Of a stretch of DNA of 64,000 bases, positions 7,716 through 62,429 are shown piece by piece (position 1 is the first letter of the stretch; the number at the start of each line of letters is the position of its first letter). The stretch is taken from NCBI GenBank assembly GCA_051294905.1, contig CM119371.1:14758001-14822000 (forward strand), in the 5' to 3' direction. The translations under genes were made by a program, and so were the position numbers. The notes below the pieces were generated by a model. The model saw only the letters and a program-made list of their open reading frames with translations, was not told the DNA's origin and searched no databases. This DNA is from Botryllus schlosseri. Taxonomy: Eukaryota.

Positions 7716-9329
7716 ATGCAGGTTGTTTGTCAAGATGTGGCAAGACATGCTATGAGGATGCTCGAGGAATTACATCGAATGAAGCAAGATGATGATCATT
7801 GTGATTTCATCATCCAAGTCGGAGATGATGTCTATCGTACACACAAAAATGTATTGTCGGCTGGTTCCGCTTATTTTAGAGCCATGTTAAAGTATGACAC
7901 GAAGGAGAGTCGCGACAGAAAAGTTGTCTTGAAAGATGTGGATTCTCATTGTGTGAAAAATTGCATCGATTTCATATATTCGGGTAAATTTGAGATTCCT
8001 GATGGAAGTATCATTGAACTTCTTCACGCCGCAATGATGATGCAGCTGGATGACGTAAAGCAAGCCGTATCTAATATTTTGGAGGAATCAATTACCATTA
8101 AAAATTACTTCTCTACCAGAAATGTGAGTGATATTTATGGACTGGCTAATGTTTCTTTGAGATGCAGAATATTTTTACAAGATAACATCATAGAAATCTC
8201 AGACCAAGCGGGATTTGAAAGCATTGACAAAGACGACCTTCTCGGCCTTCTGAAGTCGGGAAAATTGAAATTATGGGAAGAAGAAAAACTTGCATTATCG
8301 CTCAAGTGGATTGACAAATCTCAAAGTAAAAGCGAATTTTTGCATGAATTTCTCGAAGTAATCAAGTTTGATCTAATATCCCCGGCATATTTGCAACAGA
8401 TTTTAGAAACTCACCCCCACATAAGTAATGACTCCGAGCTGTACAAGTTATTCACTAGTGATATCTGGAAAGCTTCTATTAAGGCAAAAGAAGATGATGA
8501 TGCTGACAAATTGATAATTCTTTTTGATGATGACTCAAAATGCCTCCGATCCTTCAATCCAATAACCGAGGAAATAGAAAAGTTTCATGATGCAAAGTTG
8601 GAGTTCTCAATGGATTTCACAGCGATTTCTCTGGACTCATATATTTATGTCTTTTGTAAAGCTAAATCTGTTCATCGACTCAATTTTCAGAGAAAAAATT
8701 CGAAATGGGAAAAGATGGATGATATGATATGCGACCATGGTTCATCTCCAAGCTCAGTTTGTTTAACCGGATCCATAATCGTTATCGGAGGAAGTGGTTT
8801 TACAGAAAAAGCTGATGTCGAAAGATTTGACCCATCTGTAAATCAATGGTTTTTACTGCCAAACAAACCGTCAGCAATTTCCAATGCTAGTCTCGTATCG
8901 TTGGATGGTTCCATCTATTGTATCGGAGGTTGGCGAGATGGTGCAGAAGTTTCTTCATTCTGCAGACTCACTCCATCCTCATCAGAGTGGGTTGATCTCG
9001 CGCCAATGAGATATCCTGCTGATGGCTGTGGTGTTGTTGCAGTTGACCAAAAGATATTTGTGACGAGTGGGATGACTGAAGATGATATCCTCAACAATGT
9101 AGAATGTTACAATGTTACTTCAGCTCAATGGACTTCGTTGTCATCTATGAATTTAACTCATGGCAACAATAGTGCTTATCGCATCAGTAATTGGATTTTT
9201 GTAGTCGATGAGTTTGGTGACTCTCATGACATTGAGAAGTACGATTTATGGAACAAAAAATGGTGTAACATGGAAAAAGAACCAAATCATTTGTTCGAAG
9301 TTTGCGGATCTGTAATGGTGAAGCTATAG
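7716..9329 (+). CDS. BTB-BACK-Kelch (KLHL-like) protein, intact, intronless CDS, 537 aa from first ATG
   Basis: BTB (CDFIIQV...HKNVLSAGSAYFRAML), BACK-like helical region (WEEEKL...KWI), Kelch repeats. ORF track starts at TTG 7704; first ATG is 7716. Confidence 0.93.
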   Translation: MQVVCQDVARHAMRMLEELHRMKQDDDHCDFIIQVGDDVYRTHKNVLSAGSAYFRAMLKYDTKESRDRKVVLKDVDSHCVKNCIDFIYSGKFEIPDGSIIELLHAAMMMQLDDVKQAVSNILEESITIKNYFSTRNVSDIYGLANVSLRCRIFLQDNIIEISDQAGFESIDKDDLLGLLKSGKLKLWEEEKLALSLKWIDKSQSKSEFLHEFLEVIKFDLISPAYLQQILETHPHISNDSELYKLFTSDIWKASIKAKEDDDADKLIILFDDDSKCLRSFNPITEEIEKFHDAKLEFSMDFTAISLDSYIYVFCKAKSVHRLNFQRKNSKWEKMDDMICDHGSSPSSVCLTGSIIVIGGSGFTEKADVERFDPSVNQWFLLPNKPSAISNASLVSLDGSIYCIGGWRDGAEVSSFCRLTPSSSEWVDLAPMRYPADGCGVVAVDQKIFVTSGMTEDDILNNVECYNVTSAQWTSLSSMNLTHGNNSAYRISNWIFVVDEFGDSHDIEKYDLWNKKWCNMEKEPNHLFEVCGSVMVKL

Positions 9330-20870: not shown

Positions 20871-20972
20871 TCATTGTGGCCAAAACACTATTCAGGTTTG
20901 TTTTCTTGGCGCACAATGTTTTCTTGGCGCACAATGCCTTCTGGTGAATTTAACTATAAATAACTAACCTAC

Positions 20973-21107
20973 TGTAGTAGCGTGACTGACGGTCTGTCTA
21001 ATATACGAGACGTGAGTTCTCAAGCAGCCATGTATTCAGTGACGACCAAGCACCGAAGCACCTGCGATGTCGTCACACCCTAGTGGCGCCATAGAGCTAC
21101 CACTACA
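20973..21107 (-). repeat. 3' LTR (135 bp)
   Basis: TGTAGTAGCG...CTACCACTACA; no difference from 25469-25603 seen by eye. Confidence 0.97.
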
Positions 21108-21698
21108 TCTCCCTTCTCGGGACAAGCACAAATGCTTATAAGCAGCACAAACATATACAACGCAAGCACAGAATGAAGACAATAAACAATCCGAATTGAG
21201 GCAGTTAGCGGTACAAAGGTATGAAGCAATTGGCAGGCAAGAGGTGAATGAAGAACACAACATATTTACACACACTACTCCTATAACTACATCAGTACTC
21301 CTCGATGTATCTACGAGGTGCGGTTCTGTTCCGATCCGACCGTCGGACTATCGCCGCCTCATGATGGTCATCACGATCGACACTAGTAGCGCTCGAACTG
21401 CTATCTCATCCCTGATCGGGAAATTTGAAGAATTCAGCTGCCTCACTGGCGGTAATGTCGACGCCTTCTTGCGGGGCATTCTCCGTCTGGTATCTCCGCA
21501 CCATTCGGCGATTTCTTCTGAAGGTGCCACGCCCAGTTCTGATAACCAAGGATCTGGGTTGAGTGTCAGTGTCAAGTTTTTCCACAACACCTTGCGATTT
21601 GCAGTCCGGAATCCAAACGCGATCTCCCACCTTGAACCTCCAGGTACTACTCTGTGTCTTTTGTTGTAATCACGAGTAACTCTGCGTCGGTAATCTGC

Positions 21699-24600
21699 TT
21701 AAGCTTTCTTCACGGCGGTTCGGTTGACAGACTTGGGCAGAAGATCGTCTGGATGACACGGTACTCTTGTTATTAGTTTGCGGCCCATGCTCAATTCTGC
21801 CGGCGAGTAGCCGATAGCCAATGGCGTGTTGCGGTATGTGAGTAGCGCCAGATATTCATCGTCACATTTTCGCAGAAGGTTTTTGATGGTCTGAACGGCA
21901 GGCTCAGCCTCCGAGTTCCCCTGTGGATATCTAGGTGAGGACATGATATGTTCAATTTTCCAGCTTTCGCAAAATGACGCAAAGTCGCGGGAAGAGAACA
22001 TAGGTGCTCCATCGGTGACCAAAGTCTCGCAGATGCCATGCCTACTGAAAATCTTCTTGAATTTCAGAATCGTCTCTGCTGCGTTCACTGTTTTGGAGAC
22101 TATGCAAATCTCAATGTCCCTGGAGTAGTAGTCAACGGCTAGCAGGTACATGGAATTCTGGTATTGAAAGAAGTCGGCACCAACACGGGACCAGGGTCTC
22201 TCTGGGAAGGATGCTGACAGCATCGGTTCAACCTTTTCTCGCTGATGCTCCGTGCACTTTTCGCAATTTCTGACGGTTTCTTCAATGTCCTTAGAAATTC
22301 CAGGCCACCAGCATGACTGTGATGCATTGAGTCGGGATTTTGTCACCCCTTGGTGAGCATCATGAAGGTATCTTAAAACGTCTTGTCTCAGCGTACAGGG
22401 GATCACCAAGCGATTCCCTTTAAGCAGCAGTCCTTCATAAGTAGATAAACAGGCTCTATCATTCCAGTATGGCCTAAGTGGGCCATGCAGCGTCTCTTTG
22501 CATTTCAGCCACCCTGAGGATACATATTGCATCACTGTGCGCAATACGTCATCTTTCTGGAGCTCTGAGCGAATTCCATCCAACTGTTTACAAGACGCAG
22601 GAAGGCTGGATGTGACGGCATTGACATAGGCTTCTGTCTCATTATGAAGGCCATCAACGTCCTCGAAAGTTGGCAACGGACAACGAGACAATGCGTCAGC
22701 GGTATATAGCAGTTTCCCAGGAACATGAGATATGGTGAAGTTGAACTTCATCAGCCGCATTCGAAATCGTTGCACTCTGAGCGGAAGCTCATCAAGAGTC
22801 TTTGTTGACAAAAGTGGAACTAATGGTTGGTGATCAGTCTCCACGCGAAGTTGATGCAAGCCGATCAGGAGTTCCTTCCATCTCTCCATAGACCACGTTA
22901 TAGCAAGGGCCTCCTTCTCGATTTGAGCGTATCGTCTCTCTGTCTCAGTCAGCGATCTGCTAGCATAAGCGACAGGGCGTAGAGAGTTGTCTACCTGACG
23001 TTGCATCAGCACAGCTCCAAGTCCATAACTGCTGGAGTCGGCAGAGATAACAGTTTCCTTATCCGGGCTGTACATAGCAAGAGTCACATCCGAGGACAGC
23101 TCTGCCTTAACCTGGTCGAAGGCCAGCTGTTGTTCAGCACCCCAGAGCCACGAAGTGTTTTTCTTCAGTAGATCCCTCAGAGGCTTTGTAAGCTCAGCCA
23201 GGTTGGGTGAGAATTTCATGAGTTGATTGGTCATTCCCAGAAACCTTCTCAGTTCCGGGACGTCTGAGGGAGCGGAGAACTTGGCAATCGCCTCAACCTT
23301 TTTAGGATCCTTGCCGATGCCATCTTTACCAACAACATGTCCAAGGTATTCCAGTTTAGTCGCTGAAAAGACACATTTGTCTCTATTCAATGTAATTCCC
23401 TCATCTCGGAGTCTATCCAGTACAAGTCCGAGGGTGGTATTGTAATCCTGTGGTGAGCTAGCAATTATGATGTCATCCATGTGACATATCACATTGGGGA
23501 TGCCAGCAAGCACCTGATTCATTTTCCGTTGGTAGACTTCGGGTGCGCTGGCGATACCGTATGGAAGCCTCTTGAATCTGAACCTCCCATCAGGGGTGAT
23601 GAATGTAGTTAACTTACGACACTCCGGTTCAAGTTCTATTTGATAAAATCCACTATTTGCATCCAGTTTGGTGTAAACAGTTCCTTCGGCAATCTTCCCC
23701 AGGGTGCTCTCAACTGTCGGCATAGGGTAGAGTTCCCTATCAACAGAATCATTTAGTTTCGTTAGATCCACACACATGCGTATTTCAGAGTTTTTCTTTG
23801 GTACCACAACGATCGGTGCGCACCAGTCTGTTGGCTCGTTGACAGGCTCAATTATGTCCGCCTTTTGCAATTTATTTAGCTCAGCAGTCAAACTACCAAG
23901 CAAAGGAATGGGAACTCTGCGAGGTACTTTCAGGCTAAACGGTTTAGCATTCGCCTTCAGTTTGATAGAGTACTGTCCTTTCATTTTTCCAACTCCTTGA
24001 AAGAGTTCAGGGTAAGCTTTCATGACCTCTTCCTTAGACCGAAGCGAGGGAGTTACTGCACAGTCTACTGCACGGATGCTAACTGTACCCGGCACATCTT
24101 GCAGGAGTCCGATTTTGAATGCCCCTGGGATACCCAAGAGTAGTTTAGGCGTATCCCGGACAACGTAGACCTTTTCCACAACGGAGTTATCCTCAAACCC
24201 GAGCGTCATAGCGACATAGCCAAGGGTGGAAAGTTCCTTATTCCCTGCAGTCATCAAACGTTTGTCGGAGGGTCTGATGGATCCATATTGACGCTTGTAT
24301 ATGTGCAAGGGCATGACTGATACTTGTGCGCCAGTATCAACGCACCATGTAAGCAGGTCAAGGGCAACCTTGAGCTTGACAAACCAGCCAATATCTTCCG
24401 CTGGTTCCACCGTGCTAATGGTCAGCCCCTGGTGTGGGATTTCAGGCTCCATGTTAACTGTATCGGTATTGGGAGCACTATCCAAATCTACAGCAGCAAT
24501 CACGGATCCCACAAAGACTGGTGCGATGGGACTTGAGCGTCCGTCCACATCGTCTTCACCAACAGTATCGGATTCCACGGAGCGTATATTTGTCTGAGCA

Positions 24601-25415
24601 GAAGCACGGCAGACAGTTTCGAAATGTCCTGTTTTCTCACACACCGAGCAATTGTAATCGGCAGCAGGACAGAAAAATCTACCAAACTGGTGCTTCTTAC
24701 CACAGTATTTGCATTTTATCAGCGACGTCTTGGCATCCTTTCCATCCTTCTGTCGAGCAGTAGATCCTGTTTTTAGTGGAGGTTTCTTTGTGACTGTATC
24801 AATCGTAGCAGATTTATAGGACGCGACACCCTGTTTGACGTATTCGCGTTTATCGATGATCGATTCAACTTTGCTCAGTGTCAAGGTTTTCGGATCCTCG
24901 GCGAAGAGTTCTGACAAGGTACCGGTGTCCATACAGCACAGAAGGAGTTTATCCATAATAACTTCCTCAAGACACCTCTGCGGATGATAGCAGCACTTGG
25001 CTGCAGCTTCGCGAACACGGAGTGACCATTGCAAAAAAGACTCGTCCTCCTCCCGTTTCAAGAATAGCCAAAATTTCCTTCGCATTCTGAAGCGATCATC
25101 ACGAAGCTCAAAGCACGCATCAAATTTCTCAATGACTAGTTTGTAGTCATTTTTATCCTCAGCAGGAATGTCTTGATCATTTTCTCGTCGAGCAGGAAGC
25201 CACGTGAGATTCTTGTAAATTGACTTTCCCTCCGGACCAATAAGACTCAGGAGGTGTCCTACCTTGACGCAGTCATCCTTTTGTGATAATTCTGCAGCAC
25301 AGAGATACGTTTCAAAGTCTTCCTTCCAATCAACCCACGCTTGAGGCGGGTTGGTTCCAGCCAGTGATAATGGCTTCGGGTGCAGTCCTTGCAAGGCAGT
25401 ATATCCACTAGCCAT
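21699..25415 (-). CDS. Gag-Pol polyprotein (Gag with two Cys-His knuckles, protease, RT, RNase H, integrase), truncated near the integrase C-terminus
   Basis: CKYCGKKH...CSVCEKTGHFETVC; VDTGAQVS; MCVDLTKLN, KLDANSGFYQI, CHMDD; ADSSSYGLGAVL, YAQIEKEALA, TDHQPL; HDAHQG...CEKC; VDYYS, VTDGAP. Confidence 0.96.
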   Translation of the reverse strand: MASGYTALQGLHPKPLSLAGTNPPQAWVDWKEDFETYLCAAELSQKDDCVKVGHLLSLIGPEGKSIYKNLTWLPARRENDQDIPAEDKNDYKLVIEKFDACFELRDDRFRMRRKFWLFLKREEDESFLQWSLRVREAAAKCCYHPQRCLEEVIMDKLLLCCMDTGTLSELFAEDPKTLTLSKVESIIDKREYVKQGVASYKSATIDTVTKKPPLKTGSTARQKDGKDAKTSLIKCKYCGKKHQFGRFFCPAADYNCSVCEKTGHFETVCRASAQTNIRSVESDTVGEDDVDGRSSPIAPVFVGSVIAAVDLDSAPNTDTVNMEPEIPHQGLTISTVEPAEDIGWFVKLKVALDLLTWCVDTGAQVSVMPLHIYKRQYGSIRPSDKRLMTAGNKELSTLGYVAMTLGFEDNSVVEKVYVVRDTPKLLLGIPGAFKIGLLQDVPGTVSIRAVDCAVTPSLRSKEEVMKAYPELFQGVGKMKGQYSIKLKANAKPFSLKVPRRVPIPLLGSLTAELNKLQKADIIEPVNEPTDWCAPIVVVPKKNSEIRMCVDLTKLNDSVDRELYPMPTVESTLGKIAEGTVYTKLDANSGFYQIELEPECRKLTTFITPDGRFRFKRLPYGIASAPEVYQRKMNQVLAGIPNVICHMDDIIIASSPQDYNTTLGLVLDRLRDEGITLNRDKCVFSATKLEYLGHVVGKDGIGKDPKKVEAIAKFSAPSDVPELRRFLGMTNQLMKFSPNLAELTKPLRDLLKKNTSWLWGAEQQLAFDQVKAELSSDVTLAMYSPDKETVISADSSSYGLGAVLMQRQVDNSLRPVAYASRSLTETERRYAQIEKEALAITWSMERWKELLIGLHQLRVETDHQPLVPLLSTKTLDELPLRVQRFRMRLMKFNFTISHVPGKLLYTADALSRCPLPTFEDVDGLHNETEAYVNAVTSSLPASCKQLDGIRSELQKDDVLRTVMQYVSSGWLKCKETLHGPLRPYWNDRACLSTYEGLLLKGNRLVIPCTLRQDVLRYLHDAHQGVTKSRLNASQSCWWPGISKDIEETVRNCEKCTEHQREKVEPMLSASFPERPWSRVGADFFQYQNSMYLLAVDYYSRDIEICIVSKTVNAAETILKFKKIFSRHGICETLVTDGAPMFSSRDFASFCESWKIEHIMSSPRYPQGNSEAEPAVQTIKNLLRKCDDEYLALLTYRNTPLAIGYSPAELSMGRKLITRVPCHPDDLLPKSVNRTAVKKA

Positions 25416-25468
25416 AATTCTGAGTAGCTAAGTAATTGCTATCAGCTGCTTTTATACTGCTGCCACCA

Positions 25469-33640: not shown

Positions 33641-34184
33641 TATGGAATGACAAATACGTTTTCACGGTTACGTGATTCTTTTCATACTGTACCGTTCTTT
33701 AAACCTTATCGCGCGTTCTATCGCAGTCAATACGACCCAGTGAAACGGTCGTAACTATTGTATCTGGGAAATAAGTAAATTTTCTGCAGCAAGACGCTGG
33801 TACGATAAATTCACGCCATCAGTTGGCGGGAGTAAGCCACAGACAAACACGGGAGTTCCCCTACCCGGTCGGACCTTCTTTCTTGCTTCAACGTCAGATT
33901 ATAGAGTATGACTGGAGTGACGACTCGATTGTTCTCCCATTGTTAGCCGGCAGAATGGTCACGGTCAGATGGATCCACCCAAAACAGGATCGCTCAGTGC
34001 TTGTTTCAATGGAGTTCAAGGCGATTCTTCGTGTATTTCTTGAAGTTGCGTCGGAATTAGTTAGACAGTTCAACATTTAGGCAGCGGTGGCGAGTCGTTG
34101 TGACTAGTGAATAATACCGTGTAGCCTCTGTTATATTTTTCGCCAGATTTAGATCATATTTCGTCACGGATAGAAATCGGTATC

Positions 34185-35215
34185 ATGACTGATTTAGCTG
34201 CATCACTTTGGGATGACTGGGAGGGACTGACTGAAATGGAAATTGAAGAATGTTTCGAAGGACTCGATAACTGGAAAGGTGTGATTTGTGAGGAATGCGA
34301 AGCATCCTTTCCGACTGTGAAAGCTCTGAAAAAACATTACAAAAATCATAAAGTTCCCACCACTACTTGGGATATATCCGAGGATGCTGTAATTGCTGTT
34401 TTGAATAGGACTTGTGTAAATACCAAAAAATACTTTGAATGCGCCCCATCATTCGAGGAACTAGACGTGATCAAAGCTGTTCCATTGGTGAAACAACTCC
34501 ATTCTGAATATTGCAAACTTGGTGTTGACGGATTTTATCAACATTATTCTAATATCTGTCACCAAGCTAACAAGTTGCTGGGTTTGCCGCAATTGCCAGC
34601 TTCAGCATTACTTTTGAAGATGTTTGATTCTCTCGTGTGCGGTAAAGAACAGGATCCAATCACAGAGATTGGGGGAGTCAACAGCAAGGAATCTGGTAAG
34701 TAAATAGCCTTTGATACTTTGCCTTTCCATGGAAAAACTTTGACATGTTTTTAGACATACTTGAATATATTGGTGGAGTGCTTTTGGGAGCCATTTCTAA
34801 GCAAGCTAACGAAGCAATTGCCACATGCCTAACATCTGCAGCGCCATCGGGAAACCTCATTAAAGTGATGCAGAAGAAAGTCGATGGATTGAAGAGCCCG
34901 TCTGAACAGTTTCATGGCATGGTTCTCCGCTTTTATGTTATCCACAGTAAAGAAATGGCAAAACCCCTGAAAAAGATCAATTTTTTCAGGGTACTTGACG
35001 CAATTCACTGTGATCCATTCTTTAACAAATTAATTCATACTGTGTCACTTCAATCTGGCTCAGACCTAAATGAGGTTGAGGATGTCATGGATAAGGCAAT
35101 GAGACACTTGAATAACATCTTGTCTCACAATTTTGCGAAGTTTGCATTGCATGAGAAGCAAAAAAAGTCCTCCAAATTTTCCAAAAGTTTGCGAGATGGC
35201 TTGAAAAAAAAATGA
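34185..35215 (+). CDS. Predicted two-exon C2H2 zinc-finger protein, 323 aa (exons 34185-34695 and 34755-35215)
   Basis: CEECEASFPTVKALKKHYKNH finger. A 59-nt GTAAGT...TTTTTAG intron joins the two ORFs in frame (KES-D-ILEYIGG). Basic C-terminal tail. Confidence 0.8.
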
Positions 35216-37505: not shown

Positions 37506-37969
37506 CCGGGTTGTAACCAAGTCAGAAGACTCCGAATCACAAGTCAATCTCACTTTTACAGTTTTGTCTCGAGTCAAGTCGAGTCATTTTCAATTCACCA
37601 CCGAGTCAAGTCCTTGTGTTGACTGCTCAGCTCCCAGTTAACGTGTTGTTACACCCACTTTTTATAATTCTGTTTAGCGATATCGAAGGGTTCCCATTTA
37701 TACTAATTTTTCTCACTTTTAGCAGTTTTGGTCGAATTTTGAAATACAGTATCAAACCAATAGACGGAATATCAATAGTGCAGTTACTTTACTATTCTCA
37801 GACATTATAATGAAATGTCGGTCTTAGCCGTCTGATTCTCGAGTCATATGACTTGGTTTGAGTCATGCGCAATGACTTGAGTCCAAGTCAAGTTTTGTGA
37901 AACTGACTAGAGTCAAGGTAAACCATCAGAAAATCGTGACTCGTCATGACTCGAGTCATTACAACCCTG
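37506..37969. mobile_element. hAT-type MITE rich in GACTC/GAGTC repeats
   Basis: CCGGGTTGTAA...TTACAACCCTG; TSD GCTTACAG at 37498-37505 and 37970-37977. Related copies near 46516-46946, 51137-53500, 56350-56527, 60060-60405 and 61505-62020. Confidence 0.88.
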
Positions 37970-45490: not shown

Positions 45491-48305
45491 CTACATTTCA
45501 TGGTTAACGAATAAAAGAATTCTCTCTCGCTTGACTAATAAATGAATTCTCTCTTTATATCTATCTCCCTCTCTCACGCGCTCGACAATAAACAATAACA
45601 TTGAGTAGGAGAACACGCTGCTAGCTGATGGTATCGAGTTGTAATGTTTATTCGAAAGCCAATCGATGTTTATGGTGGCTTGTAGATATAATGGCCTTGA
45701 GTAAATGAAGCGATGAACGTACAGGCCGCATATCACAGGTACCGTCGTAGTGTGAGACGGAGACAGACCCTGTACCGTGAGTCGGTAAAAAACCAAAAAC
45801 TGCAAGAAAGTCTGTAAAGACACCTTCCCAGATTCCAGTCAGTGTCAACGAGTGAGGGATAGATTACAAGTATACGATATCTGCATACGAGAAAAAAAGG
45901 TTAAATTCAACCTATTTAAGCTTGAAGGCTGTGAATGTAGAACACTCCTTAGTGTGATATAGAGTCAACAGAGCTCACGGTCTACTTTCGTTTTATCCTA
46001 TTTCAAGATGTTGCAAGTGTTATACTAAACTGTCTGAAAGCCAGCCTACAACTCGTTATCGACGTTTAGGACCAATAATATATGAAAACTAGACATATTC
46101 TTAGGCAAAATTTGACGAAATATTTCGCTTTCAGCACTATTTGGTAGTGAAGTAGATTATATCAAAGTCGAATTTATTTAAGAAGAAATCCAATTGTCCA
46201 AATCAAGTTGGTGGTGAATTAAATAGAACTTGGCCTTGCTGAAACTTTAATAGAACAATGTGTATCAGGATGCTGCAGGTATATTTGCAGTCTGGGTTGA
46301 CTTTGGAGGAGAACCACTAGTAGGCCTACGTATTGTTAGAAATTATTAGACTGCTTGTATTTTTACTTGGTATTACATTGTAACAGTGATAGGCTATTTG
46401 AATATTTAAATGTTGTTGAATCAGTCTAATATTGAATATGAACCCAGTCCGATGTGGTGTAGGCTAACATGTGAAAATTATTCATGTTTAATGTTCAATC
46501 TTTAGGCCTTCCAATCAGGGCTGTGGAGTCATGACTCCATTCGAGTGGCAAATTTTTAGTGACTCGACTTAACTCGAGTCATTTTCTCAAGAGATGGAAA
46601 ATGACGCGACTCAACCTGAGTCAATCTGTGCATTGACTCGAGGTGTAGGCTACTCGAGTCATTGCACATGCCTCAGACCAAGTCATATGACTCGAGTCTC
46701 GAACGGCCAATACTGACATTACCACGCCATTGCTATTTTATCTACCAGTACTGGTAAATGAGACTGCGACCAGAAACAGTTAAGAGTGTTGAAAACTTGT
46801 ATATTATCAACGAGAAGCATTCGATAACAACAGGCAAAGTAGTAAAAACTGGGTGTCAAGTATTAACTCGAAACTGAACAGTCAACACAATGAGTTGGAC
46901 CCGGAATTGATGCTGAATTTAAAATGACTCAACTCGATTGACCCTAATCACATAGGACCAGACATGGGGTGATTACTTCATGGATGTAATCGATTGCGAT
47001 TACGATTACTTCGGAATCACGCGATTACGATTACAGCAAAATCAGGAAGTAGTCGATTACGAATACGATTACATTGGAAAAGTAATCATGATTACTCACG
47101 ATTACATTTATTTTGCATCTCAGTAGTTATATTGGAAGACAATACATGGATTGCGCTGAAAACGCTTAATGAGATAACATATTTCTTTAAAACAGATGCG
47201 ACATTTGCTTGCTACGTCATATTGTACAATGTACATATTGCCCATTTTATAAAGGACGATTTATCGCACCCAATGATTCGCATTCTTGCCAGGTCCATAA
47301 CTGCTGCACCCCAAATTCCCCAGTAGGGTGGGGAGCGTGCTCGGAGGGGACTCAAAAGTATTTCGTGAACGAACATAAATTATAGAGTATTCTCGTCAGA
47401 TTTCATTAAGTTGAAAATTCTCTTTGAGCTTTGCCATTTAAATGTCTCTAGATAGCTTGATTTCGAAATGCAAACGTCTCCCCTCAAGAAATAAAGGATG
47501 CATAACTCATAGTAATAGGCATTTTGGTGCCAGTCAATACCGCGCCCCGACACACCAAAAGACATATGCAGTTTCGGCCAACATGCGACTCTACGAAGTG
47601 TGCTATCAAAGAAAGACGTTGGCCGAAATTTGGGGTATGTGTCCATTGTCAATAGCCAAGCTGGGTGGGCGTGACTAACAGTCCGGTCCTTCCAATCTGA
47701 GCCTACGATGCAAATGCCACGCAGGCACCCACAGAGCATTAGACATGACAATTTGTGTGTGCGTCTCACGAAAGTTTTTCTTTTAGTCTGCTAAGTTTGG
47801 GGCACTACAATATCTTTTGACTATATAACAGACCGGAGGTCACGAATTAACAACATGCACTACAGTAATTATTGCAATATACCAGATGTTATAATTATGG
47901 ATTACGCGCCCCCTGCTCTTCAGGTAAGTCTGACCATCGGGGGCTGAGATAGGATTAATAATGCAATATAATGGAATTAACAATGTTATTGACAAAATTA
48001 AATCTTCAAGTTAAAAATTGACTACCCTTTGGGGGCCCAAGCCCAACGTTTAGAGTGGAGGACGATTTTGCTGTTTTGATCCTGATTCTATCTACAACCC
48101 ATGCTAACATGGTAAATAAGCCGATGGCTATGACGGCAGGTCCAAATCTTCAGTAAAGAATTGTGAAATAGCAATTGACGCCCGTTTTGAGTAGAATAAT
48201 ATGAGAATAAGAGAAGGTGAAAATAAAATTCTGCCTTCAACTTGATACAGATAATGTAATGCAAGCTGCCATTACGAGAAACGGCAAAAAACGGCGCGGT
48301 TATGA

Positions 48306-51257: not shown

Positions 51258-53302
51258 CCGTAATTTTCCATGTATAATCCGCAAAATTTTCACGATTTTT
51301 TTGCCCTAAAATCAGGTGGTGCGTATTATACATGGGAGCAACACGCTTGAAAAAAATCTCCCTCGATAAAAAACTTGAAAGCACACCTTTCTTCATGTTC
51401 GTTTCCAATCGCGCATCACTTTCAGCCATCGTGCCCAGTAATTCGTATTATCAGTGTAACGCGCTACCAATTAGCAAAAAGCGTGTTGCCAATTAACGAG
51501 AGTCGTCTGCACAGCACGCAATCTCCTGCCTAGTTGGTTTGCCGTTTGCACGCGAGCGAAATTAGGTCATTCATTGATTGCTGAACGCGCGCACGGCAAT
51601 CCTCGCTGATTCATCGACAGGCCATGTGCGCAAAATATATTCGCTTGCGTAATCAGTCGCACCTCCAACAGGCGTGGTGTGCACGACATGACCGTTGGCC
51701 TGAGCAATCGCATCTGACCTCGTGCGCAAGATGTCGCGTCGCCGGCCTCGCAGGCTTTGGCTGCTATCTACTATCGTACAGAGGCAATACCTTTACTTGT
51801 ATAATGATTAGCAATCGCATCTGTAATAGGCCTCGTGCGCAAGACGTCGCGTCGCTGGCCCGAACTGTCGCGTCGCCAGCCTCGCAGGCTTTGGCTGCTC
51901 TGTACTATCGTTTAGAGCAGGGGTGGGCAAACTACGGCCCGCGGGCCGCATGCGGCCCTCCACACTGTTCTGTGCGGCCCGCGAGAGTCTAAAGAAACTT
52001 AATAAAAAATATTGATAAAATGCGTACTAAAAATCTAATTAATGCAGGGACTTGATTAAACTTTTTAGTATATTTCACCATGATAGTTTTAAGGAAGTGG
52101 TTCTTAAACTAGGGGGCGTCCCCCCCTTGAGGGCGTGAAAGCATCTGAAGAGGCGTGCGAAGCTGAGATCAACTGAAAAATTTTTTCGCGCTCGGCGCGA
52201 TTTACGTTCGTTTCACAGTTATTGCTCTGTATTTAGTTTGAATTTCACATTTCAAAATCCCTCATCCACAGTAGTAGCCTTCCATGCCACCTAACTACCC
52301 GTTAGGTTGGCTAGCATCCTGGTTGCGTTTTGTGATATGACGATAAGGGGGACGCGAAATCTTTCACCATCATAAGGGGGCGTGAGTTGTAAAGTTGAGG
52401 ACCACTTTTCTAGGATAAATAATGCACATATTATATTTTATGTTTAATGTCTGGTGCGACAGCCTGATATTAAAGCCCACGTAGCTTGAAAGGTTTCAAC
52501 TGCTAAACATCACAGAAATTCTGAACGAGATTGACGCAATTCGGATCACGAGTGTGATTTCAGATTGGCTAGTCCAGTTTTAATTATTTCAGTGATATGC
52601 TTGTAAAAAACGATTCGCACGTGTATTAGGTAGATTTGTTCTCTGTATTCGTAGAGTTAGGGTATTTATATTTTATCTACACACAGAAGAAGCGTGTTTG
52701 AGGCTAACATGGCTATGATGCTGTCAGCATTGTGTGTCCTGGAGCTGAACCAAAAATGGAATTGGCAAATCTATGAACAGATCGCTGCTGACAGATTTAA
52801 ATTTCAATCCTGTTCTAAGAATCGGGACCACCGACTTTCATCTCTATAGTTTTAACAAATTGGTCATTGAAGTCGACCAGCCTATGAAATCTCGCCACTG
52901 TTACTGACGCATGTACGACAATAGCAAAGCAATGCTTGGTTTCTTTTAAATAAGCATCTCCATGTCCTCATTATATAATCAAATACCAACATTGCGTTTT
53001 CGTTTATAATCCCAATTTTATGTAGTGCGGCCCGGGAATGAATTCGTATGTTGAATGCGGCCCGCGAACTCAAAAGTCTGCCCACCCCTGGTTTAGAGAC
53101 AATGCCGTTAATTGCATAATGATTAGCGATGGTTATGTCATGATTGTTCGCCAGTGACATCGCAAAACAGAACAACATCGCGTACTAAAACACAGCTATT
53201 CATGTACTGTGAATGCAGGGTGCGTACTATACATGGGTACAGGCTTTTTCCCAGAATTTGCATGCCATTTTAAGGGGGCGTACTATACTTGGAAAATTAC
53301 GG
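51258..53302. mobile_element. pogo/Tigger-like MITE (same family as 10525-11318) with a nested hAT
   Basis: TA|CCGTAATTTTCC...GGAAAATTACGG|TA; colinear with the first copy outside the insert. Confidence 0.88.
51918..53090. mobile_element. Nested hAT-type element
   Basis: CAGGGGTGGGCA...TGCCCACCCCTG; TSD GTTTAGAG at 51910-51917 and 53091-53098. Empty site GTTTAAAG at 11091-11098. Confidence 0.92.
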
Positions 53303-55632
53303 TACTCGAGACTCAGACGGCCAAGACCGACATTTCCTTGTGATTTCGAGGAGAAGTCAAGTAACCACACTCTTGGGATTTCGTCTATTGGTACTGGTAC
53401 TTGAAAATGCGACCAGAAACTGCTAAACGTAAAGAAAATTAGTATATTATAAATTCGAACGAATCGATATCACCAAACAATTATAAAAAGTGGGTTTAAA
53501 AGGACTTAAAGTGGAACTGCTAGCGTGCAAACTTACGGCATTTACACAATTTACTATACCACTTGTGATAGTATTTCGAAAGGGTTAATGAAACGTTTGG
53601 ATCACAGCATTCACTACCAAACGAATAGTTAGAAATCACAAACGTAGCTTCAATACTCAATGTATGATGGGAAAATGTCCATCGGTCAAAGAAAAATCGA
53701 AGAATGATCTTGCCTCGATCATATTTTATGCTTCTTCTACAGCTAGGTAACTCAACCCTGGCTATAAGTATTTTATGTTTTCTGTTTTCATTTCCTCATT
53801 CAGGTAGATGCTTTCTGTAACCAGTCGAAGAGGCTAATGTTAATGCTTTTGTTCTACTCTTAGAATTGACTGACTTCTATTTGAAAATTTCGAAAATGTG
53901 TGATTGTATTCCACGGAAATTATCATTATTAACGTAGGTGGTTACCGGCAGTTATTAGTGCAGGTTATTTTGTCGATATGAATGATTTGTGTGCGCTTTG
54001 ACTCTAACCATGTGTATTTTAAAAACAGCACTATAATCTATAAAAATATCCTTGACAAGTTATTGGTTACCATTATGCAGGTTGTTTATCAAGATGTGGC
54101 AAGGCATGCTATGAGGATGCTCGAGGAATTACATCGAATGAAGCAAGATCATGATCATTGTGATTTCATAATCCAAGTCAGAGATGATGTCTATCGTACA
54201 CACAAAAATGTATTGTCGGCTGGTTCCGCTTATTTTAGAGCCATGTTGAAGTATGACACGAAAGAGAGTCGCGACAGAAAAGTTGTTTTGAAAGATGTGG
54301 ATTCTCAGTGTGTGAAAAATTGCATCGATTTCATATATTCGGGTAAATTTGAGATTCCTGATGGAAGAATCATTGAACTTCTTCACGTCGCAATGATGAT
54401 GCAGCTGGATGATGTAAAGCAAGCCGTATCCGATATTATGGAGGAATCAATCACCATTGAAAATTTCTTCTCTACCAGAAATGTTGGTGATATTTATGGA
54501 CTGGTTGATGTTTCTTCGAGATGCAGTATATTTTTACAAGAAAATATCATGGAAATCTCAGACCAAGCTGGATTTGTAAGCATTGAAAAAGATGACCTTC
54601 TCAGTCTTTTGAAGTCAGGGAAACTGAAATTATGGGAAGAAGAAAAACTTGCATTATCGCTCAAATGGATCGAGAAATGTCAAAGTAAAAGCAAATATTT
54701 ACACGAATTTCTCAAAGTAATCAAGTTTTATCTAATATCCCCGCCATATTTACAACAGATTTTAGAAACTGACCCCCGTCTAAGGCCCTTTTCATACCGG
54801 ATTTACGAAACTCTTTCGGGAACAAGTTCCGAAACAGGCGATGTTCACATAGAGAAAAAATTACCGAAACAGTTCCGGGAAAAAGGCGCGTTCATACCTA
54901 TTTAGAGTTACCGCGAACTTATGTTCATACAGGTCGTTTTTTCGGTAAATTCTCGGGAAATTATGGCCAGTATGAACGCGATTCTCCGTAAGTGTTGATA
55001 GTTACGAAACCATGTCTGTGGGGTGTTCCAGTTGTAATATGCTTGTGGAAAACAATGTGGGAGAGGCATATACGTGAGATGCGGAGAAGTTGGCTCCAAC
55101 TTTTAGCTATGGGATGTTGCGGATATGCCTTCTCGAAGTGTATGGGGCTCTATACTCAATATCTGTATCAGTAATAGAGCCCGAGCATGTTCCTGCCGCT
55201 GGCTTGTATATTATCAACCGAAGCTGAGAGCAGAAACTGAAAGCCAGCAAAGAGGATAGAGTCCTGGAATGAAAAGAACCACCGATCACATCTGGGTACG
55301 ACTGTTACGAGGTACGACAAAGTCAGTTTATCTTTGTGATTGCTGTATAATGGTTTAGGTAAATCTAATCTTATGTACACTGTACAGAGAAACCAGGGAA
55401 ATCAAGAAATTCGTGAGAGAAACATTTGGTATATTCTGCGACGAGCTTCGAGACCATAACGAAAAGCAACAAGCAAATTACACGAACTCAATTTCTCTTG
55501 CTTGCTGAGTAGCTGTCGCTCTTTGGAGGCTAGCCAATGAAGCCAATCGTTTATAGATCCAGGTAAACATCAGATGTGTTTTAAGAAGGCAACTGTCACA
55601 AGTTGATTTTAATAAAAATTGCTGGTGCCTAG

Positions 55633-56147
55633 TAGGGCTAGCCACAATGATTCGATTCGAGTACTCGAATCTGAATCGAGTATCAACTTTATTGATTCGA
55701 GGCTAGTCGTAAAATACTACTTTTCGAGTAGTCTACTGAAATTATACTGAAAGTTGATTTACTAACTAGAATTATACCGTAGTTTTGATAAACTTTTCCA
55801 CTGAGTAAACCTTGAAACCTTGATTGGCCGTGTCGCAACATACGAGATATAGTACAAAGCTACGAACGTTGCTGGAAATAACACATTTCCGAAGTCATGG
55901 CCATCCCATATAACACTGTCAAGCAGTGCAATGAAAACGGTATGGTCGAAAAAACATTGAAGTATCTTTAATGTGACGGACAATAGGCGTTATGTTCTTT
56001 ATGGTGGCATAAAAGGTAGCCTACACATTTGAATTTTGGCATGGTACATTGTGTTGTGATGTCATCATGATGATACTCGACTCGACTCGAAGCGTAATAA
56101 GTGATTCAGAATCGAATCACTCAGGTACTCTATTTTGCCCAGCCGTA
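55633..56147. mobile_element. hAT-type MITE nested in the Harbinger element
   Basis: TAGGGCTAGCC...GCCCAGCCGTA; imperfect TSD GTGCCTAG/GTGCATAG; ATTCGA/CTCGA repeats. Confidence 0.7.
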
Positions 56148-56742
56148 GTGCATAGTAATATTTCTATATTTGTCATGGCGGAATGTCAGCCAGTTTTTGA
56201 GTAGCATACCACTGCAAAAAGGTCAGACAAATTTGGTCTTGAATCATTATGTCAGAAAAAGAAGTCTGAAAGACCAATTGTTCTTGCCAAGTAGGCTACT
56301 TTCTGTCTCAAAAGTAAGACCCAAATTGATGGAAAATAGACTTAAACTGGAAACTGAGCAATCAACACAATGACTTTGACTCGAGTCATAAAACCATGAC
56401 TCGAACTTGACGCTCTGCTCGATGAGTTGGACTCGGATTTGACTCGGTGATAAATTGAAAGTGACTCGACTTGAATCAAGTCAAAACTATTGAAGTGGGA
56501 TCGACTTGTGACTTGGTTACAACCCTGCTCACTTGACTGAAATTGAGACCAAATTTGTATATTTTTTGTAGTGTAGTCAGACATGTACATCAACCTACTT
56601 ATTTATTTACTTATAGTTACTAAAACTATGTAGTTCTAGTTGTGGATTTCAAAAAATACAGTTTCTGGTTCTAGTTGCGGATATTTGAAAGTGAGTAGTT
56701 CTAGTTCTAATAGTAGATTTTGAAAAGTTGATAGTTCTAGTT

Positions 56743-57397
56743 CAAGGCCGGCCAACCCGTGGCCCGCGAGTTAATTTCCGAAATCAGTAGTATTATCAAA
56801 AATGGATTGCACAGATTGTGAACTTGCAAGGCCAATCAAAAATTTGATTAGTCTGGCCGCAGCACTTGAGATGTGATGACTGAAATATCAGTTCCGACGC
56901 ATTGATAGGTCTATGAGCCAGTCACATATTGGTATATCTTCATACACTACAATAAAGCAGAATACTTTGCGATAGATTAATCAAAAGTAAAAAATTTCTA
57001 CACGCTTAGCGCAACATCCTGTCACTCGATTTCTTGCTTTTAATATTGTTACCCCTTTGTGAAAATGAAAGAACGCCTAATCTATCAGATTGAGTCTAAC
57101 TATATATATATTCGCAACCTCCTGTTTGCGCTCGCAGAAAGACCGCCGACTATGAAACCCAGGCACAAAATGATTGCCGCATGTTGGACGAAGGTGATAT
57201 CGATATGTCCAGGTGCCGAATAGTCCAGTCCTTGCAAACTGAGCCCAGCGATATACAGCAAGCTTACAATATAGTCAAGTGACAATATTATTTATTTATC
57301 AACTTCAAAAAATTTTCGTGCTTTGCGCGGCTAGTGGCTGGTGGAATAGTTCGTCAATCGAATGTGGTGATTTGGCTGAAAAGGTTGGCCACCGCTG
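56743..57397. mobile_element. hAT-type MITE within a TAGTTC-rich repeat inside the Harbinger element
   Basis: CAAGGCCGGCCAACC...GGTTGGCCACCGCTG; imperfect TSD TTCTAGTT/TTTTAGTT. Confidence 0.6.
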
Positions 57398-60300
57398 TTT
57401 TAGTTGCTAGTTTAAAAAATTCAGTAGTTCTAGTTGAAGTTGCGCATTTTGAAATTCCATTTTGAAATTCCAGTACTTTGTACAAGTCTGAGTGTTGTGG
57501 GTGGATAAAAAATTACCACAGCAACATTTGTACCAAACATGCATTTGCTGCATTCAAGTTTTTTCAGGATGACTTCATGATTGGGAGCCAGAGGGTTCCG
57601 TACTAGCCTTTTAGCCTACATAACTGATGACGCAGCCTATCCCTTTCAGCCCCGGCTCATGGAGCCTTTTCCCTGAAACACAAACAAAGCATAAGCTAAA
57701 GCTAATTTCAAATATGTAATACGAATTTCCTTTCTGCTGCCCTTAAAATTCACAATTGCTTTTTCAGAAACTTGGCAAAGCACACATGAAGGTTGAAAGA
57801 TTTTGGTCGACTGAAGGCGCGGTGCTCAGCTTTTCTCATAAACTGCAATCCGCTAAGGCCAGAAGATACAGAGGATGGTATACGCAATGAAGACAAGACC
57901 TGGTGGTGATCTAAGTATCGCTGGCCCAGACGTCGGAAATGCCCTGTGTGACTTTCTCAATAAACAATGCTCTTGCTTAACCAGATGTGTTTGTGCTGTT
58001 TCATTTTATTCATGAGAGAAACTATAACTTAATGCACACTTGCACAGTTCCGCCTTTTCACCTTTTTCATCAGTATCCTCCATCTAGACCTGCGAAAAGA
58101 TCAAATTAAGTTACACTTGCCTAACCTTGCATGACAAAGGAATGACTTGATTGTTTTCCTTTGTTATGCAACAAGAAAATGAAGGCATAGGTGAAAACCA
58201 AATTATGGCTTGGATGATGTACGATGGCTTACCAGCCAGTTGGTACAATTTGAATTTTGGTTAGTGAGTCAGAGCTAAGGACATCATTCTCTGCTGTGCT
58301 GCCACTATCAAAGCAGATGTTACTAAATCCCCTTTTCAGTAGGCGTATATGACGGTGAGTCGGTGACTAACCTACACACAGCATATCCGTGGTTAGAAAC
58401 TTCCCTTTGATGTAACAAATTTGGTAAGGGTTAAGATCACCTACCAAATTAGTGTTGAAGTGCTAACATTTTCAGGCAACTCACCCAATGCTGCATCATT
58501 TGGAGATGGTGTTCTACCTTTTAAGCCGTGCTCTGTTTACAAAACCACAGAAAAAAGAAGCCGACTAGTAGTCAGTGACTACGTATTGTGAGCACTGAGC
58601 ATACAGAATATAAATCCAAGAATAATGCATTCCCAACACCATTACCAAGAAGATCAAAATGCCGCAGGTATCTGACCTCGAAATACAAGCAGCCTGAATG
58701 AACAGCGCGTTACGGTAACTAAAAGTTTGATTGACAGCGTCCCTGGAACCCAGCTGCGCCATTCGTGTTCATACTCAGTCGGTCCCGTAAAAATCTCCGA
58801 AAATAAGCGCGTTCATACCGCCCCGAATCACCAGTGTTATGTTCACATAGAGGGGTTCCGGTAAACATTTTCGAGAAATGTTATTCCCGGAACCCCGGTA
58901 TGAAAAGGGCCTAAGTAACGACTTCGAGCTGTACAAGGTATTCAATGATCATATTATGAAAGCCTCCGTTAAGGCAAAAGAAGATAATGACGCTGACAAA
59001 ATGATAATTCTTTTTGATGATGTCGCAGAATGCCTCCGATCCTTTAATCCAATAACCGAGGAAATAGAAAAGTTCCATGATGCGGAGTTGCATTTCTCGT
59101 TGCATTTCACAGCGATTTCCCATGACTCATATATTTATGTCTTTTCTGAAGCTAAATCTTTTCATCGACTCAATTTCCAGAGAAAAAATTCAAAATGGGA
59201 AAAGATGGATGATATGATTTGTGACCATGGTATGTCTCCAAGCTCGGTTTATTTAACTGGATCCATAATCGTTATTGGAGGAAGTGGTTATGCAGAAAAA
59301 GCTGATGTCGAAAGATTTGACCCATCTGTAAATCAATGGTTTCTACTTCGAAACAAACCTACAGCAATTTCTGATGCAACTCTCGTGTCGTTGGATGGTT
59401 CCATCTATTATATCGGTGGTTGGCGAGATGGTGTCGAAGTTTCTTCATTCTGCAAATTCACTCCATCCTCATCAGAGTGGGTTGATCTCGAGCCAATGAG
59501 ATATCATGCTGATAGCTGTGGTGTTGTTGCAGTTGATCAAAAGATATTTGTAACCGGTGGGTATAGTGAAGAAGATACTGTCAACAATGTAGAATGTTAC
59601 GATGTTACTTCATCTCAATGGACTTCATTGCCATCTATGAATTCATGTCATGGTCGCAATACTGCTTTTTGCATCGGCAATTGGATATTTGTAGTGGACT
59701 GGCTTGGCAAATCCGATGACATTGAGAAGTACGATTTACTGAACAAAGAATGGCATGGCATTAAAAAAAATGAAGATCAATCTTTCGTAGTTGGCGGATC
59801 TGCAATGGTGAAGATATAAATGACTGGTTCTGAAACTAAATACCGCCATCACTTCTTAACGACATGACATATTGTAACATGAACTAAAAACCTCTGGTAT
59901 AATGTCCAAACAATAACGCTTGAGCTTGGAACAAGTTTCAGATGTGCTATCCTAATACATTTGATGTATTTCCTTGATGACCATTTCTCTTGAGCGACTT
60001 TTACGTCAAATTAGTCAGTCTTAGTACTCAAAGTAAAAAAAGTAGAAAATGCCTGGGTTCTAACCTAGTCACAAGGTTCCGAGTTTCAAGTCAATCTCAA
60101 GTCTGACTCGTAGCGTTTTGACTGAAATCCAACTCATTGTTTTGACTGTTCAGTTTCGAGTTGATCTTGGTAAATCCACTTTTCACAAATCTGCTTGGTG
60201 TTATCCAATGCTTTCATTCATAATATACCAATGTACCTCACTTTTACCAATTTCTGGTCTAACAGTACTAAATTACTAATAGATAAAATACCAATAGTGT

Positions 60301-60936
60301 GGTAACTTCACTATTCTTCAAAATTACGATGAAATATCGATCTTGGCCGCCTGAGTCTCGATTCGTATGACTTGGTCCAAGTCGTGCGCGATGAGTCGAG
60401 TCAATATACAGATTTATTGAACAAAAAATTGCATAGCATGAAAAAGGAAGCAGGCGTAGATTACTCCTTCATTTTTGTTACAGTTTATTGCTTGACTGTT
60501 TTTATAAACTCTGTCATTTGTCATTCATCTTTGCCAGCTGTTTTTTTGCATCCGATCCGAGTTGCGATAATGTTAACGTTCATCTACACTCGTTGACTTG
60601 CAATAATTTGATGGTGTTGTCTCACTGCGTTGCTCTTTCTAGACTGGCAAGTCCAATTTTTTTTCATTTGTATTCGTTCCGATGTATGATTGCGATTCTC
60701 CAATGTATTATTTGAAACAGAATTTTCAGATTGTTGGATAAGTTACTCATGAGTAAAATGTATTATCGTTGCGATACTCAGGTGTCGGACAGATTCAGAT
60801 TCTCAAGAACCTGCCTGCCCTTTAACACGGTAACAAGAGCAAACGGAGCTGCCATAAGTCAACTTTCAAATCCTATAGGCTTTCTTTGTCTTTGTTTTAT
60901 AGAGGATAGAGGATTGCCCATTTGGTAACACTAGCT

Positions 60937-62429
60937 CAGTGGTTCCCAACGGGGGAGGAATTCCCCCCTCGGGGGTAATTTTGCAATTTTTAGGGAGGAA
61001 TTCCACTTTAGAATTGTAACGTATTTCCCAAATTGTTCATGTCCGAACTGTCATGTAGTCAACCATGTTATATTTGAACGTATGCTCCTTATGCCTGTTT
61101 TTTGTTTGCTGAAAGTATGTTCAAATGTTATTTGAAATCTCTTTTTCACATACAAATCCCCCCTTTCAAACTAGTTCAGATTTTCTGCAATTTTGTAGGC
61201 CAGCGACGGCCTCTCAATCAAATATATCCTAAGCGAGCAAATGTCGTGCCGAATCTATCACAAGGCCTCTAGTGAAAAAAAAAATTTTATATTTTCAAGT
61301 CAACATTTTCAGACAGTGACAAAATATTCCAACGTCATCGATTCAAGTCAAAGAGATCGCTAGCCTTGCTTTATTTTTAGTGAACAGCAACCTGATCGAA
61401 AAAAGACATGTTAAACTCGGTGCAATGTTGCCGAAACGTAATGGATGTTTTAAATTTCAATGAGCTCCAGCAGGGAGTCTGATCACGTGTACGTTATGTA
61501 TCAATGCTGTAACCAACTCCCGAGTCTCACTTTCATAATTTTGACTCGAGTCAATTCGAATCACTTTCAATTCACCATTGGGTCAAGTCCGAGTACAAGT
61601 CACCGAGCACAGGGTAGAGTCCGAGTCATGGTATTATGACTCGAGTCCAAGTCCAAGTCACACTCAAGTCAACACTGTTTGGTGGTATTGAATGATTTGG
61701 ATTCGTTATATACTAATTTTCCTCACTTTGAGCAGTTTCTTGTCGCATTGTCAAGTACCAAGATCACTAAATAAAATTCCGATAGGGTGGTCACTTTACT
61801 GTTCTTCGAAATTACAATGACATGTCGGTCTTGGTCGTCTTATAGTCTCGAGTCATATGGCTTGGTTCGAGTCATGCACAATGACTCGAGTTCAAGTCGA
61901 GTCAATACCCAGATTGTCTCGAGTCGAGTCGTTTCCGCATTTTGAGAAAATGACTCGAGTCAAATCGAGTCATCAGAAAATGGTGACTCGATGAGTCAGA
62001 CTCGAGTCTGGTCAACCCTGCCATATGTGAAAGTACCAATATTATTGGACAAATGCATACGCAAGCTTGAGAAAAAAATCGCGAGACCAGTAAACTTATG
62101 CATACTGATTTTTCACAGCAGTTGTTTTAGCGATTGGTGCATATAGTAAGCCTAAAACAAAAATGGAAGTGTGGGAGTCTGTCGAGTCAAGCCTTCCAGA
62201 ATTTGTTTGATTGAGACCAAGACCAGTGTTTTTGGAGGTCTGCAAAGTGTTATTACAGCACTGCTAGAAACAAACACTCGGTACAGCCCGTCTTATTCTC
62301 TCGGTCAACAGGTGTTTGCGCGGTAAAAATGATCTTTTTTAATCATCGGGCAGATTTATCCTAAGGGGGGAATTTTGGCTTAAATTCCGGCCAAGGAAGG
62401 CACGAGATGAAAAAGGTTGGGAACCACTG
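60937..62429. mobile_element. hAT-type element with a nested GACTC-rich MITE
   Basis: CAGTGGTTCCCAAC...GTTGGGAACCACTG; TSD CACTAGCT at 60929-60936 and 62430-62437. Confidence 0.9.

Follow-up and report, generated by a model that had tools for sequence, protein, structure and literature searches.

Elements of the PIF/Harbinger superfamily are known to excise precisely (PMC4561436, PMC4065317). In rice mPing/Rurm1 (mutable slender glume; PMC4065317), an element of this family sits in a coding exon and the resulting knockout is restorable by exact excision, a configuration like that of the locus described here. The rice element has a known active partner and its reversion has been observed, whereas here the host is an animal, the interrupted gene has many paralogues and reversion is only possible. 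Elements of the superfamily have also been described as introners. Supplement file 8 of PMC12130899 labels 12 families as PIF-Harbinger introners, e.g. Panicum virgatum fam10; those 12 come from a grass, two fungi and dinoflagellates, with no animal among them. In these introners, as in the Micromonas IE1-type (PMC11282704), the GC donor lies in or near the terminal inverted repeat (TIR), the AG acceptor comes from the duplicated target, and the exon is exactly restored; all of this holds for the geometry of the present locus. The tabulated families comprise several spliced genic copies of roughly 0.1-1.1 kb by table coordinates, in contrast to the one 4.1-kb copy with weak sites found here. 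Thus, clean reversion and PIF/Harbinger introners are both already known.

The window analysed, 64,000 nucleotides from Botryllus schlosseri, contains a kelch-like gene in two parts. The 5' part (54075..54783, plus strand), which is intronless and encodes the BTB and BACK domains, ends with a TAA triplet; the 3' part (58915..59819, plus strand) carries the Kelch repeats up to the stop codon. In silico removal of the 4,131 nt comprising the intervening element and one TAA yields an ORF of 537 amino acids (54075..59819) without stops, in agreement with the original prediction. The restoration of the frame is exact because the element is removed together with one copy of its target-site duplication (TSD), and the length of the element is irrelevant. 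The product matches Pfam PF00651 (E 2e-21), PF07707 (E 5e-15) and PF01344 (E 1e-27), and the order BTB, BACK, Kelch repeats places it among the KLHL (BTB-BACK-Kelch) proteins, with which it shares these three domains. Unlike KLHL proteins in general, it is lineage-specific, encoded by a single exon, part of a tandem birth-and-death array and devoid of a close named orthologue. The best match among named proteins, kelch-like 12 of Styela clava, shares 30% identity with the paralogue at 7716-9329.

That paralogue (7716..9329, plus strand) is the nearest intact one. The restored ORF aligns with it colinearly over 1614/1614 nt, gap-free and with 88.9% identity, and it carries the empty-site sequence, a single TAA (TAAG) at the homologous insertion site. 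The array as a whole is a tandem one of about nine paralogues that evolves by birth and death. Of the eight copies that the window contains in full, 4 remain intact, a frameshift or truncation affects 3, and the last is the interrupted copy. Since 3 other copies of the 8 are broken, the loss of a kelch copy is routine in this array. Each intact paralogue is one long ORF that has no intron at the insertion site.

The intervening element (54784..58911, 4,128 bp) is bounded by perfect 17-bp TIRs at 54784..54800 (plus strand) and 58895..58911 (minus strand), the left one being followed by short subterminal repeats to about 54980. It is flanked by the duplicated target TAA at 54781..54783 and 58912..58914. 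Chance does not account for such an insertion. The 3-bp duplication of the TAA/TTA type and the GG..CC ends of the TIRs are those of PIF/Harbinger elements, and Harbinger transposons as presented in PMC9179366 share with this element both of these traits and two oppositely oriented, spliced transcription units. The element departs from that description in that its perfect TIR is 17 bp, below the quoted 25-50 bp, in being decayed and internally deleted with an unrecognisable Myb/SANT gene, and in harbouring nested MITEs with 8-bp TSDs. Its sequence marks it as a non-autonomous derivative of PIF/Harbinger in which likely remnants of a transposase can be matched by eye. A scan of metagenome contigs for the TIR gave 85 chance 17-mer loci, 1 of them after TAA and none matching the element over more than 25 nt; Rfam gave 0 matches on 52000-62000. 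An inverted repeat around the whole gene (53306-53454/60216-60361), which suggested a larger element, was rejected as a dispersed repeat with other copies near 37.7, 46.8 and 61.8 kb.

The segment 55419..55535 (plus strand), with one internal stop, is likely a remnant of the N-terminal region of a Harbinger transposase. Compared by eye with a fish Harbinger transposase from the supplement of PMC9179366, it shows 16/39 identical residues without gaps, a figure without statistical confirmation; 6 of the 16 belong to the search motif, leaving 10/33 independent identities. A weak by-eye resemblance to sequences from the same source suggests that 57768..57830 (plus strand) is probably a frameshifted remnant of the region of the last catalytic motif. 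Pfam gave no transposase match in 21 short ORFs or 12 read-through frames of the element and no Myb/SANT match in the latter, and the Myb/SANT domain may have been deleted. A phmmer search with a transposase-like fragment retrieved 1 protein, which tblastn did not support and which was rejected as an artefact of tandem repeats.

Members of the element family are transcribed, as RNA reads attest. A plus-strand GT-AG intron (55563..57767), whose joint is found in 72 RNA reads with about 55 starts, contains all the nested MITEs; another probable one (55322..55387, plus strand) is suggested by loose read ends, with no listed joint. A minus-strand transcript carries a GT-AG intron at 58090..58484 (106 RNA reads, about 58 starts), a location that fits a second, convergent gene. 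These introns have GT donors (GTAAAC, GTGAGT) and pyrimidine-rich acceptors. The decay and the nested MITEs noted in the original prediction are real: one MITE with degraded TIRs and an 8-bp duplication (7/8 match) lies at 55633..56147 and another, also with an 8-bp duplication (7/8 match), at 56743..57397, in addition to a fragment (about 56345..56527) belonging to a dispersed repeat family, of which the window contains several more copies.

Could the repeat have been misplaced inside the gene by the assembly? Neither filled junction is bridged among the contigs listed (24 of about 75,800). However, an exact TIR-bounded insert flanked by a duplication of the very triplet present in the paralogue is a product of transposition, not of misassembly, and some window-specific element bases are found at single-copy depth (8-14) in run X1. 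An artefact is thus extremely improbable.

The original prediction also pointed out that both junctions read CTAAG and that the segment 54785-58915 begins with GC and finishes with AG, so that its splicing would restore the frame exactly. These observations stand. In the left CTAAG the G, and in the right CTAAG the C, belong to the TIRs, and the GC..AG ends follow automatically because a TIR starting with GGC landed at TAA-G; only a G after the target is needed. In the window, 345 of the 2,285 plus-strand T(T/A)A sites (15%) are followed by G. The geometry is a by-product of the insertion and not independent information, being the default at that share of the sites.

The predicted weakness of the hypothetical GC..AG intron (54785..58915, plus strand) is borne out by a simple consensus count, no trained model being involved. 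The donor AAG|GCCCTT agrees with 5/9 consensus positions, none of them at +3 to +5, and is equalled by 16% of the 2,783 GC sites in the window, although GC donors are usually closer to consensus than GT donors (PMC2490688). The purine-rich acceptor has a pyrimidine fraction of 0.35, below 81% of 3,598 AG sites, and another AG lies 8 nt upstream. Despite the dinucleotides, by this count the element ends lack usable splice sites of the kind that introners have. In the single raw RNA run X23 (6% of the run), the depth of the kelch exon is 0-4; no 54784/58916 joint is among the 15 of 185 joints listed, which is uninformative either way since kelch depth there is 0-3.7.

It is very unlikely that the 4.1-kb insert is spliced as a GC-AG intron, with a TIR donor and a duplicated-target acceptor, to give a full-length protein in the manner of an introner-like Harbinger. 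The exactness of the geometry speaks for it, as does its recurrence in a PIF-Harbinger introner of switchgrass that has GG/CC termini, a 3-bp TSD and mostly GC donors; long, kilobase-sized introners are moreover reported in the tunicate Styela clava (both from PMC12130899). An intact frame would also be improbable were the insertion as old as the divergence of this copy. Yet the donor and acceptor are at or under the strength of random sites, strong same-strand donors and acceptors inside the element compete with them, the geometry is expected by default, and the intact paralogues have no intron at the site. In a wider form of this idea, the symmetric GGC..GCC ends would make T(T/A)A-G insertions in either orientation seamless GC-AG introns, the high-copy family would be a conditional animal introner, and the kelch gene would be alive through splicing of the 4.1-kb copy. 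This too is very doubtful. If true, it would explain the intact frame despite the 1.6-3% drift of the copy from its family, and, if junction reads appeared, the locus would offer a view of a large animal PIF/Harbinger intron at its origin, for which the empty allele could serve as comparison.

Spliced introns located after a stop codon favour nonsense-mediated decay (NMD) of the transcript. In the unspliced kelch reading, the first in-frame stop is at 54903..54905 (plus strand), giving a product of 276 amino acids made of BTB-BACK and about 40 element-derived residues. This raises the possibility that the filled allele yields an altered product, either a stable dominant-negative stub that would dimerise and bind Cullin-3 but lack a substrate arm, or, through cryptic in-frame splicing, a protein with TIR codons. 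Open frames do run across both element termini (53982-54905 and 58851-59819), and two weak GC donors, at 54838 and 54886, are in frame with a better acceptor at 58875, whose pyrimidine fraction is 0.65. However, these donors are GC sites with a 6-7/9 match, and the spliced introns of the element would expose the transcript to decay. An altered product is accordingly unlikely.

The family is high-copy. In run X1, summed contig depth is about 14,000-22,000 over the element body versus 24-27 in two unique flank bins, a ratio that is not a copy number. Two contigs of run X8, record 19 (55259-55677, depth 50.5) and record 21 (57220-57900, depth 54.1), span body and MITE at family depth, that of a body-only contig being 70.8. 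The common form of the family thus already bears the nested MITEs. Therefore, the decay of the element is older than this insertion, and a decayed element in an intact gene is largely no paradox: of the puzzle raised originally, the observation holds and the paradox mostly dissolves. The idea that the numerous runs whose share is about 0.25 carry kelch mRNA was rejected, the share in X5 and X8 coming mostly from repeats.

This copy diverges from the dominant family contigs by 28/1,772 nt (X5) and 43/1,483 nt (X8), plus indels. Under simulated neutral drift in place, the 537-codon frame survives in 1-6% of cases at 1.6% divergence and in 0.6% at 3%. A recent knockout therefore requires that most of the divergence preceded the jump, which cut-and-paste transposition permits.

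A further X8 contig, record 22 (190 nt, depth 8.2), which comes from another sample, covers 58912-59082, where it shows 13 differences, and begins exactly at the right TAA; its remaining 19 letters do not match the element. The nearest paralogue shows 21 differences over the same interval. Hence an empty-site allele or an unseen close paralogue exists in the X8 sample, and the contig may represent the paralogue rather than an allele. In X1, record 4 (54642-54779, depth 12.5) has 1 difference and 3 unmatched last letters, which hints at a second haplotype differing beside the junction, filled or empty undistinguished.

These data bear on a functional reversible knockout, in which frequent precise excision in soma or germline would re-activate the kelch copy and selection on revertants would keep its frame. 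The TIRs are perfect and the TSDs match, a situation in which PIF/Pong/Harbinger excision is precise as a rule (PMC4561436); the exonic mPing of rice Rurm1 reverts somatically (PMC4065317), and members of the present family are transcribed. Against this, no autonomous partner is seen, this copy carries a broken transposase, the redundancy of the paralogues removes the need for a switch, and the empty-site sequence, being 7% diverged, is no fresh excision product. Such a switch is highly improbable.

We favour, with a probability of roughly 0.85, a recent and probably polymorphic insertion that is an ordinary knockout of a kelch gene by a Harbinger-type element. This was the fallback of the original prediction, and it is the best supported by the TIRs, the TSD, the gap-free colinearity with the paralogue and the high-copy family. 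The decayed, composite, non-autonomous element, which a transposase encoded elsewhere would have moved in trans, inserted at a TAA in the only coding exon of a kelch gene that has about eight tandem paralogues, and duplicated this TAA. Its decay and nested MITEs came along with it, and a recent, probably unfixed insertion would account for the unbroken halves of the gene. A transcript starting at the kelch promoter would continue into the element, where its reading frame ends after 40 codons of foreign sequence. The encoded BTB-BACK stub would have no Kelch repeats, and the transcript, whose stop is followed by introns that the element splices, is a likely NMD target. Given an active partner, precise excision could restore the gene, with no sign of its use as a switch.

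On this likeliest reading, the insertion is of little import, being a further case of a transposon disabling a member of a redundant gene array. It nevertheless provides a tidy case of Harbinger ends imitating GC-AG introns by default, and illustrates why the age of an insertion is not to be read from the decay inside the element.

The 4,128-bp segment 54784-58911 ends in perfect 17-bp inverted repeats and has a TAA on either side. As originally predicted, its deletion together with one TAA yields a stop-free 537-amino-acid frame from 54075 to 59819, with the BTB and BACK domains encoded 5' of the break and the Kelch repeats 3' of it. The restored gene aligns with the nearest intact paralogue (7716-9329) at 88.9% identity over 1,614 nt with zero gaps (dN/dS = 0.46), and the target site in that paralogue is a single TAAG. 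The gap-free alignment, the target-site duplication (TSD) and the restored frame together establish that the segment was inserted into a coding exon; an assembly artefact is the least probable of the readings considered. In the unspliced kelch reading, an in-frame stop at 54903-54905 leaves 276 amino acids. That these survive as a stable truncated stub, or that a cryptic in-frame splice intervenes, is unlikely.

Both the TAA duplication and the GG..CC ends are as expected of PIF/Harbinger. In 21 short ORFs and 12 read-through frames of the element, Pfam gave no relevant hit, and no Myb domain, and a phmmer search with an element fragment returned one protein only, a spurious repeat protein. 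By eye, 55419-55535 matches a fish Harbinger transposase (supplement of PMC9179366) at 16/39 residues without gaps, 6 of these identities being the search motif itself and the independent ones numbering 10/33. Near 57768-57830 there is a weaker, frameshifted likeness to the region of the last catalytic motif. The element is accordingly filed as a non-autonomous Harbinger derivative with a putative transposase remnant matched by eye. Harbinger elements normally carry two genes, as described in PMC9179366, and RNA reads reveal two convergent, spliced transcription units within the element, with GT-AG introns at 55563-57767 (+ strand, 72 reads) and 58090-58484 (- strand, 106 reads). These reads derive from other family copies, since they consistently differ from the window copy (e.g. 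148/148 at 55434). Across 54950-58760 the family is transcribed from both strands and cleanly spliced at GT-AG sites despite its decayed coding remnants. All nested MITEs sit in the + strand intron and are removed by splicing.

The element clearly belongs to a large family. Four of the 24 listed sequencing runs (X1, X5, X8 and RNA run X23) supplied the contig and read data used here. In DNA run X1, summed contig depth, which is not a copy number, is about 14,000-22,000 over the element body versus 24-27 in two unique flank bins. In a second run, X8, one contig (55259-55677, depth 50.5) spans the body into MITE 1 (55633-56147) and another (57220-57900, depth 54.1) spans MITE 3 (56743-57397) into the body, while a body-only contig has depth 70.8. 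Because contigs at family depth bridge body and MITEs, the latter belong to the form that was amplified, where they lie within an intron of the element itself; MITEs 1 and 3 are each flanked by an 8-bp duplication matching at 7/8 positions. The decay came along with the element, and the contrast originally drawn between a decayed element and an intact gene is therefore weak.

The window copy differs from the dominant family contigs at 28 of 1,772 nt in run X5 and 43 of 1,483 nt in X8. In simulations, a neutral frame survives in 43% of cases at 0.5% divergence, 19% at 1%, 1-6% at 1.6% and 0.6% at 3%. If accrued in place, this divergence would make an intact neutral frame improbable, which keeps GC-AG splicing and the other rival readings alive. 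It does not date the insertion, because cut-and-paste transposition brings a copy's own mutations along.

An element-free version of the locus, either allelic or from a close but unseen paralogue, is present in another sample. A 190-nt X8 contig (record 22, depth 8.2) covers 58912-59082 with 13 differences; its match begins precisely with the right TAA, and the other 19 letters find no match on the element. Record 23, equally deep, shows 22 differences in 329 nt. At these positions the nearest paralogue shows 21 and 89 differences, respectively. The element-free version suits a recent or polymorphic insertion. As for the base before the target TAA (54780), it is A, not C, in the three most similar aligned paralogues, and two contigs lose their match there; the filled haplotype may have acquired its C at this position as a derived change.

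PIF/Pong/Harbinger elements are known to excise precisely and leave no footprint, by TSD microhomology (PMC4561436), in line with the original prediction that such excision is often footprint-free, and in rice Rurm1 an exonic mPing insertion reverts, a textbook reversible knockout (PMC4065317). A selected reversible switch is nevertheless very improbable here, the element-free X8 sequence being too diverged for a fresh excision product.

CTAAG stands at both junctions, and the segment 54785-58915 begins with GC and finishes with AG, just as first noted. These intron-like ends are largely built in. The terminal inverted repeat (TIR) opens with GGC and closes with GCC. Whichever way round a copy inserts, a G next to its T(T/A)A target will therefore give AG|GC..AG, and on the + strand of the window 345 (15%) of the 2,285 T(T/A)A sites have that G. 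The old sequence is always restored when an element and one TSD are removed. The caveat that donor and acceptor are poor is borne out by simple consensus and pyrimidine counts, made with no trained model. The donor AAG|GCCCTT agrees with the consensus at 5/9 positions but at none of +3 to +5, and its score is equalled or exceeded by 16% of the 2,783 GC sites in the window; genuine GC donors are closer to consensus than GT donors (PMC2490688). The acceptor has a pyrimidine fraction of 0.35, below 81% of 3,598 AG sites, and a competing AG 8 nt upstream. In contrast, the proven introns within the element combine GT donors with acceptors rich in pyrimidines. RNA depth over the kelch exons is 0-3.7 in 6% of RNA run X23 (15 of 185 joints inspected), too shallow to show or exclude splicing across the insert. 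With such sites, and a geometry expected at 15% of targets anyway, true GC-AG splicing of the insert is quite improbable.

PMC11282704 and bioRxiv 10.1101/2022.06.06.494994 (median family lengths 30-654 nt in the latter) review introners whose GC or GT comes from the TIR and whose AG comes from the TSD, in line with the original claim that TSD bases are co-opted as splice sites. PMC12130899 reports at least 12 PIF-Harbinger introner families, none of those listed being from an animal; one, in switchgrass, has GG/CC termini, a 3-bp TSD and mostly GC-AG sites. It also reports two kilobase-sized families (hAT, Pao) in Styela clava. Given these precedents, reversible knockouts and introner-like elements are both already described kinds. 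Among the titles searched in one library, none concerned a Harbinger introner in an animal, and that this element works as a conditional introner in its animal host would be a long shot.

An ordinary recent knockout of a redundant kelch paralogue by Harbinger insertion, the fallback reading of the original prediction, is graded the most likely explanation (probability about 85%). The element would have been mobilised in trans and inserted recently, and the split copy would lose function, with probable nonsense-mediated decay (NMD).

Positions 1-59819 hold at least nine BTB-BACK-Kelch genes in tandem, with coding frames of one exon, the ninth copy being cut by the window start. Of the eight lying wholly in the window, four are intact (7716, 14803, 29664, 41306), three are frameshifted or truncated (11949, 13054, 38317) and one is split by the element. 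At 11949-14295 a frameshifted 5' copy runs straight into another partial copy from which residues 1-127 are missing, an arrangement suggestive of deletion or unequal crossing-over between paralogues. The nearest database protein to the array has only 52% identity; among 21 matches to the paralogue 7716-9329, the best named relative is a Styela clava kelch-like protein (30%), which makes a tunicate host probable. Inside the array, an unbroken 1,242-amino-acid frame (21699-25427, - strand) with reverse transcriptase (RT), RNase H and integrase domains in Ty3/Gypsy order is apparently a young LTR retrotransposon. Two adjoining short frames at 34125-35215, one with a C2H2 zinc finger and both unrelated to kelch, may be what is left of another mobile element. 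An inverted pair of dispersed repeats flanking the split gene was dismissed as coincidence, since the window has several further copies (family members at 53304-53499, 56345-56527, 60055-60402, 37508-37900, 46540-46900 and 61508-61990). The kelch array is in a birth-and-death state, and loss of the split copy would be tolerated through paralogue redundancy.
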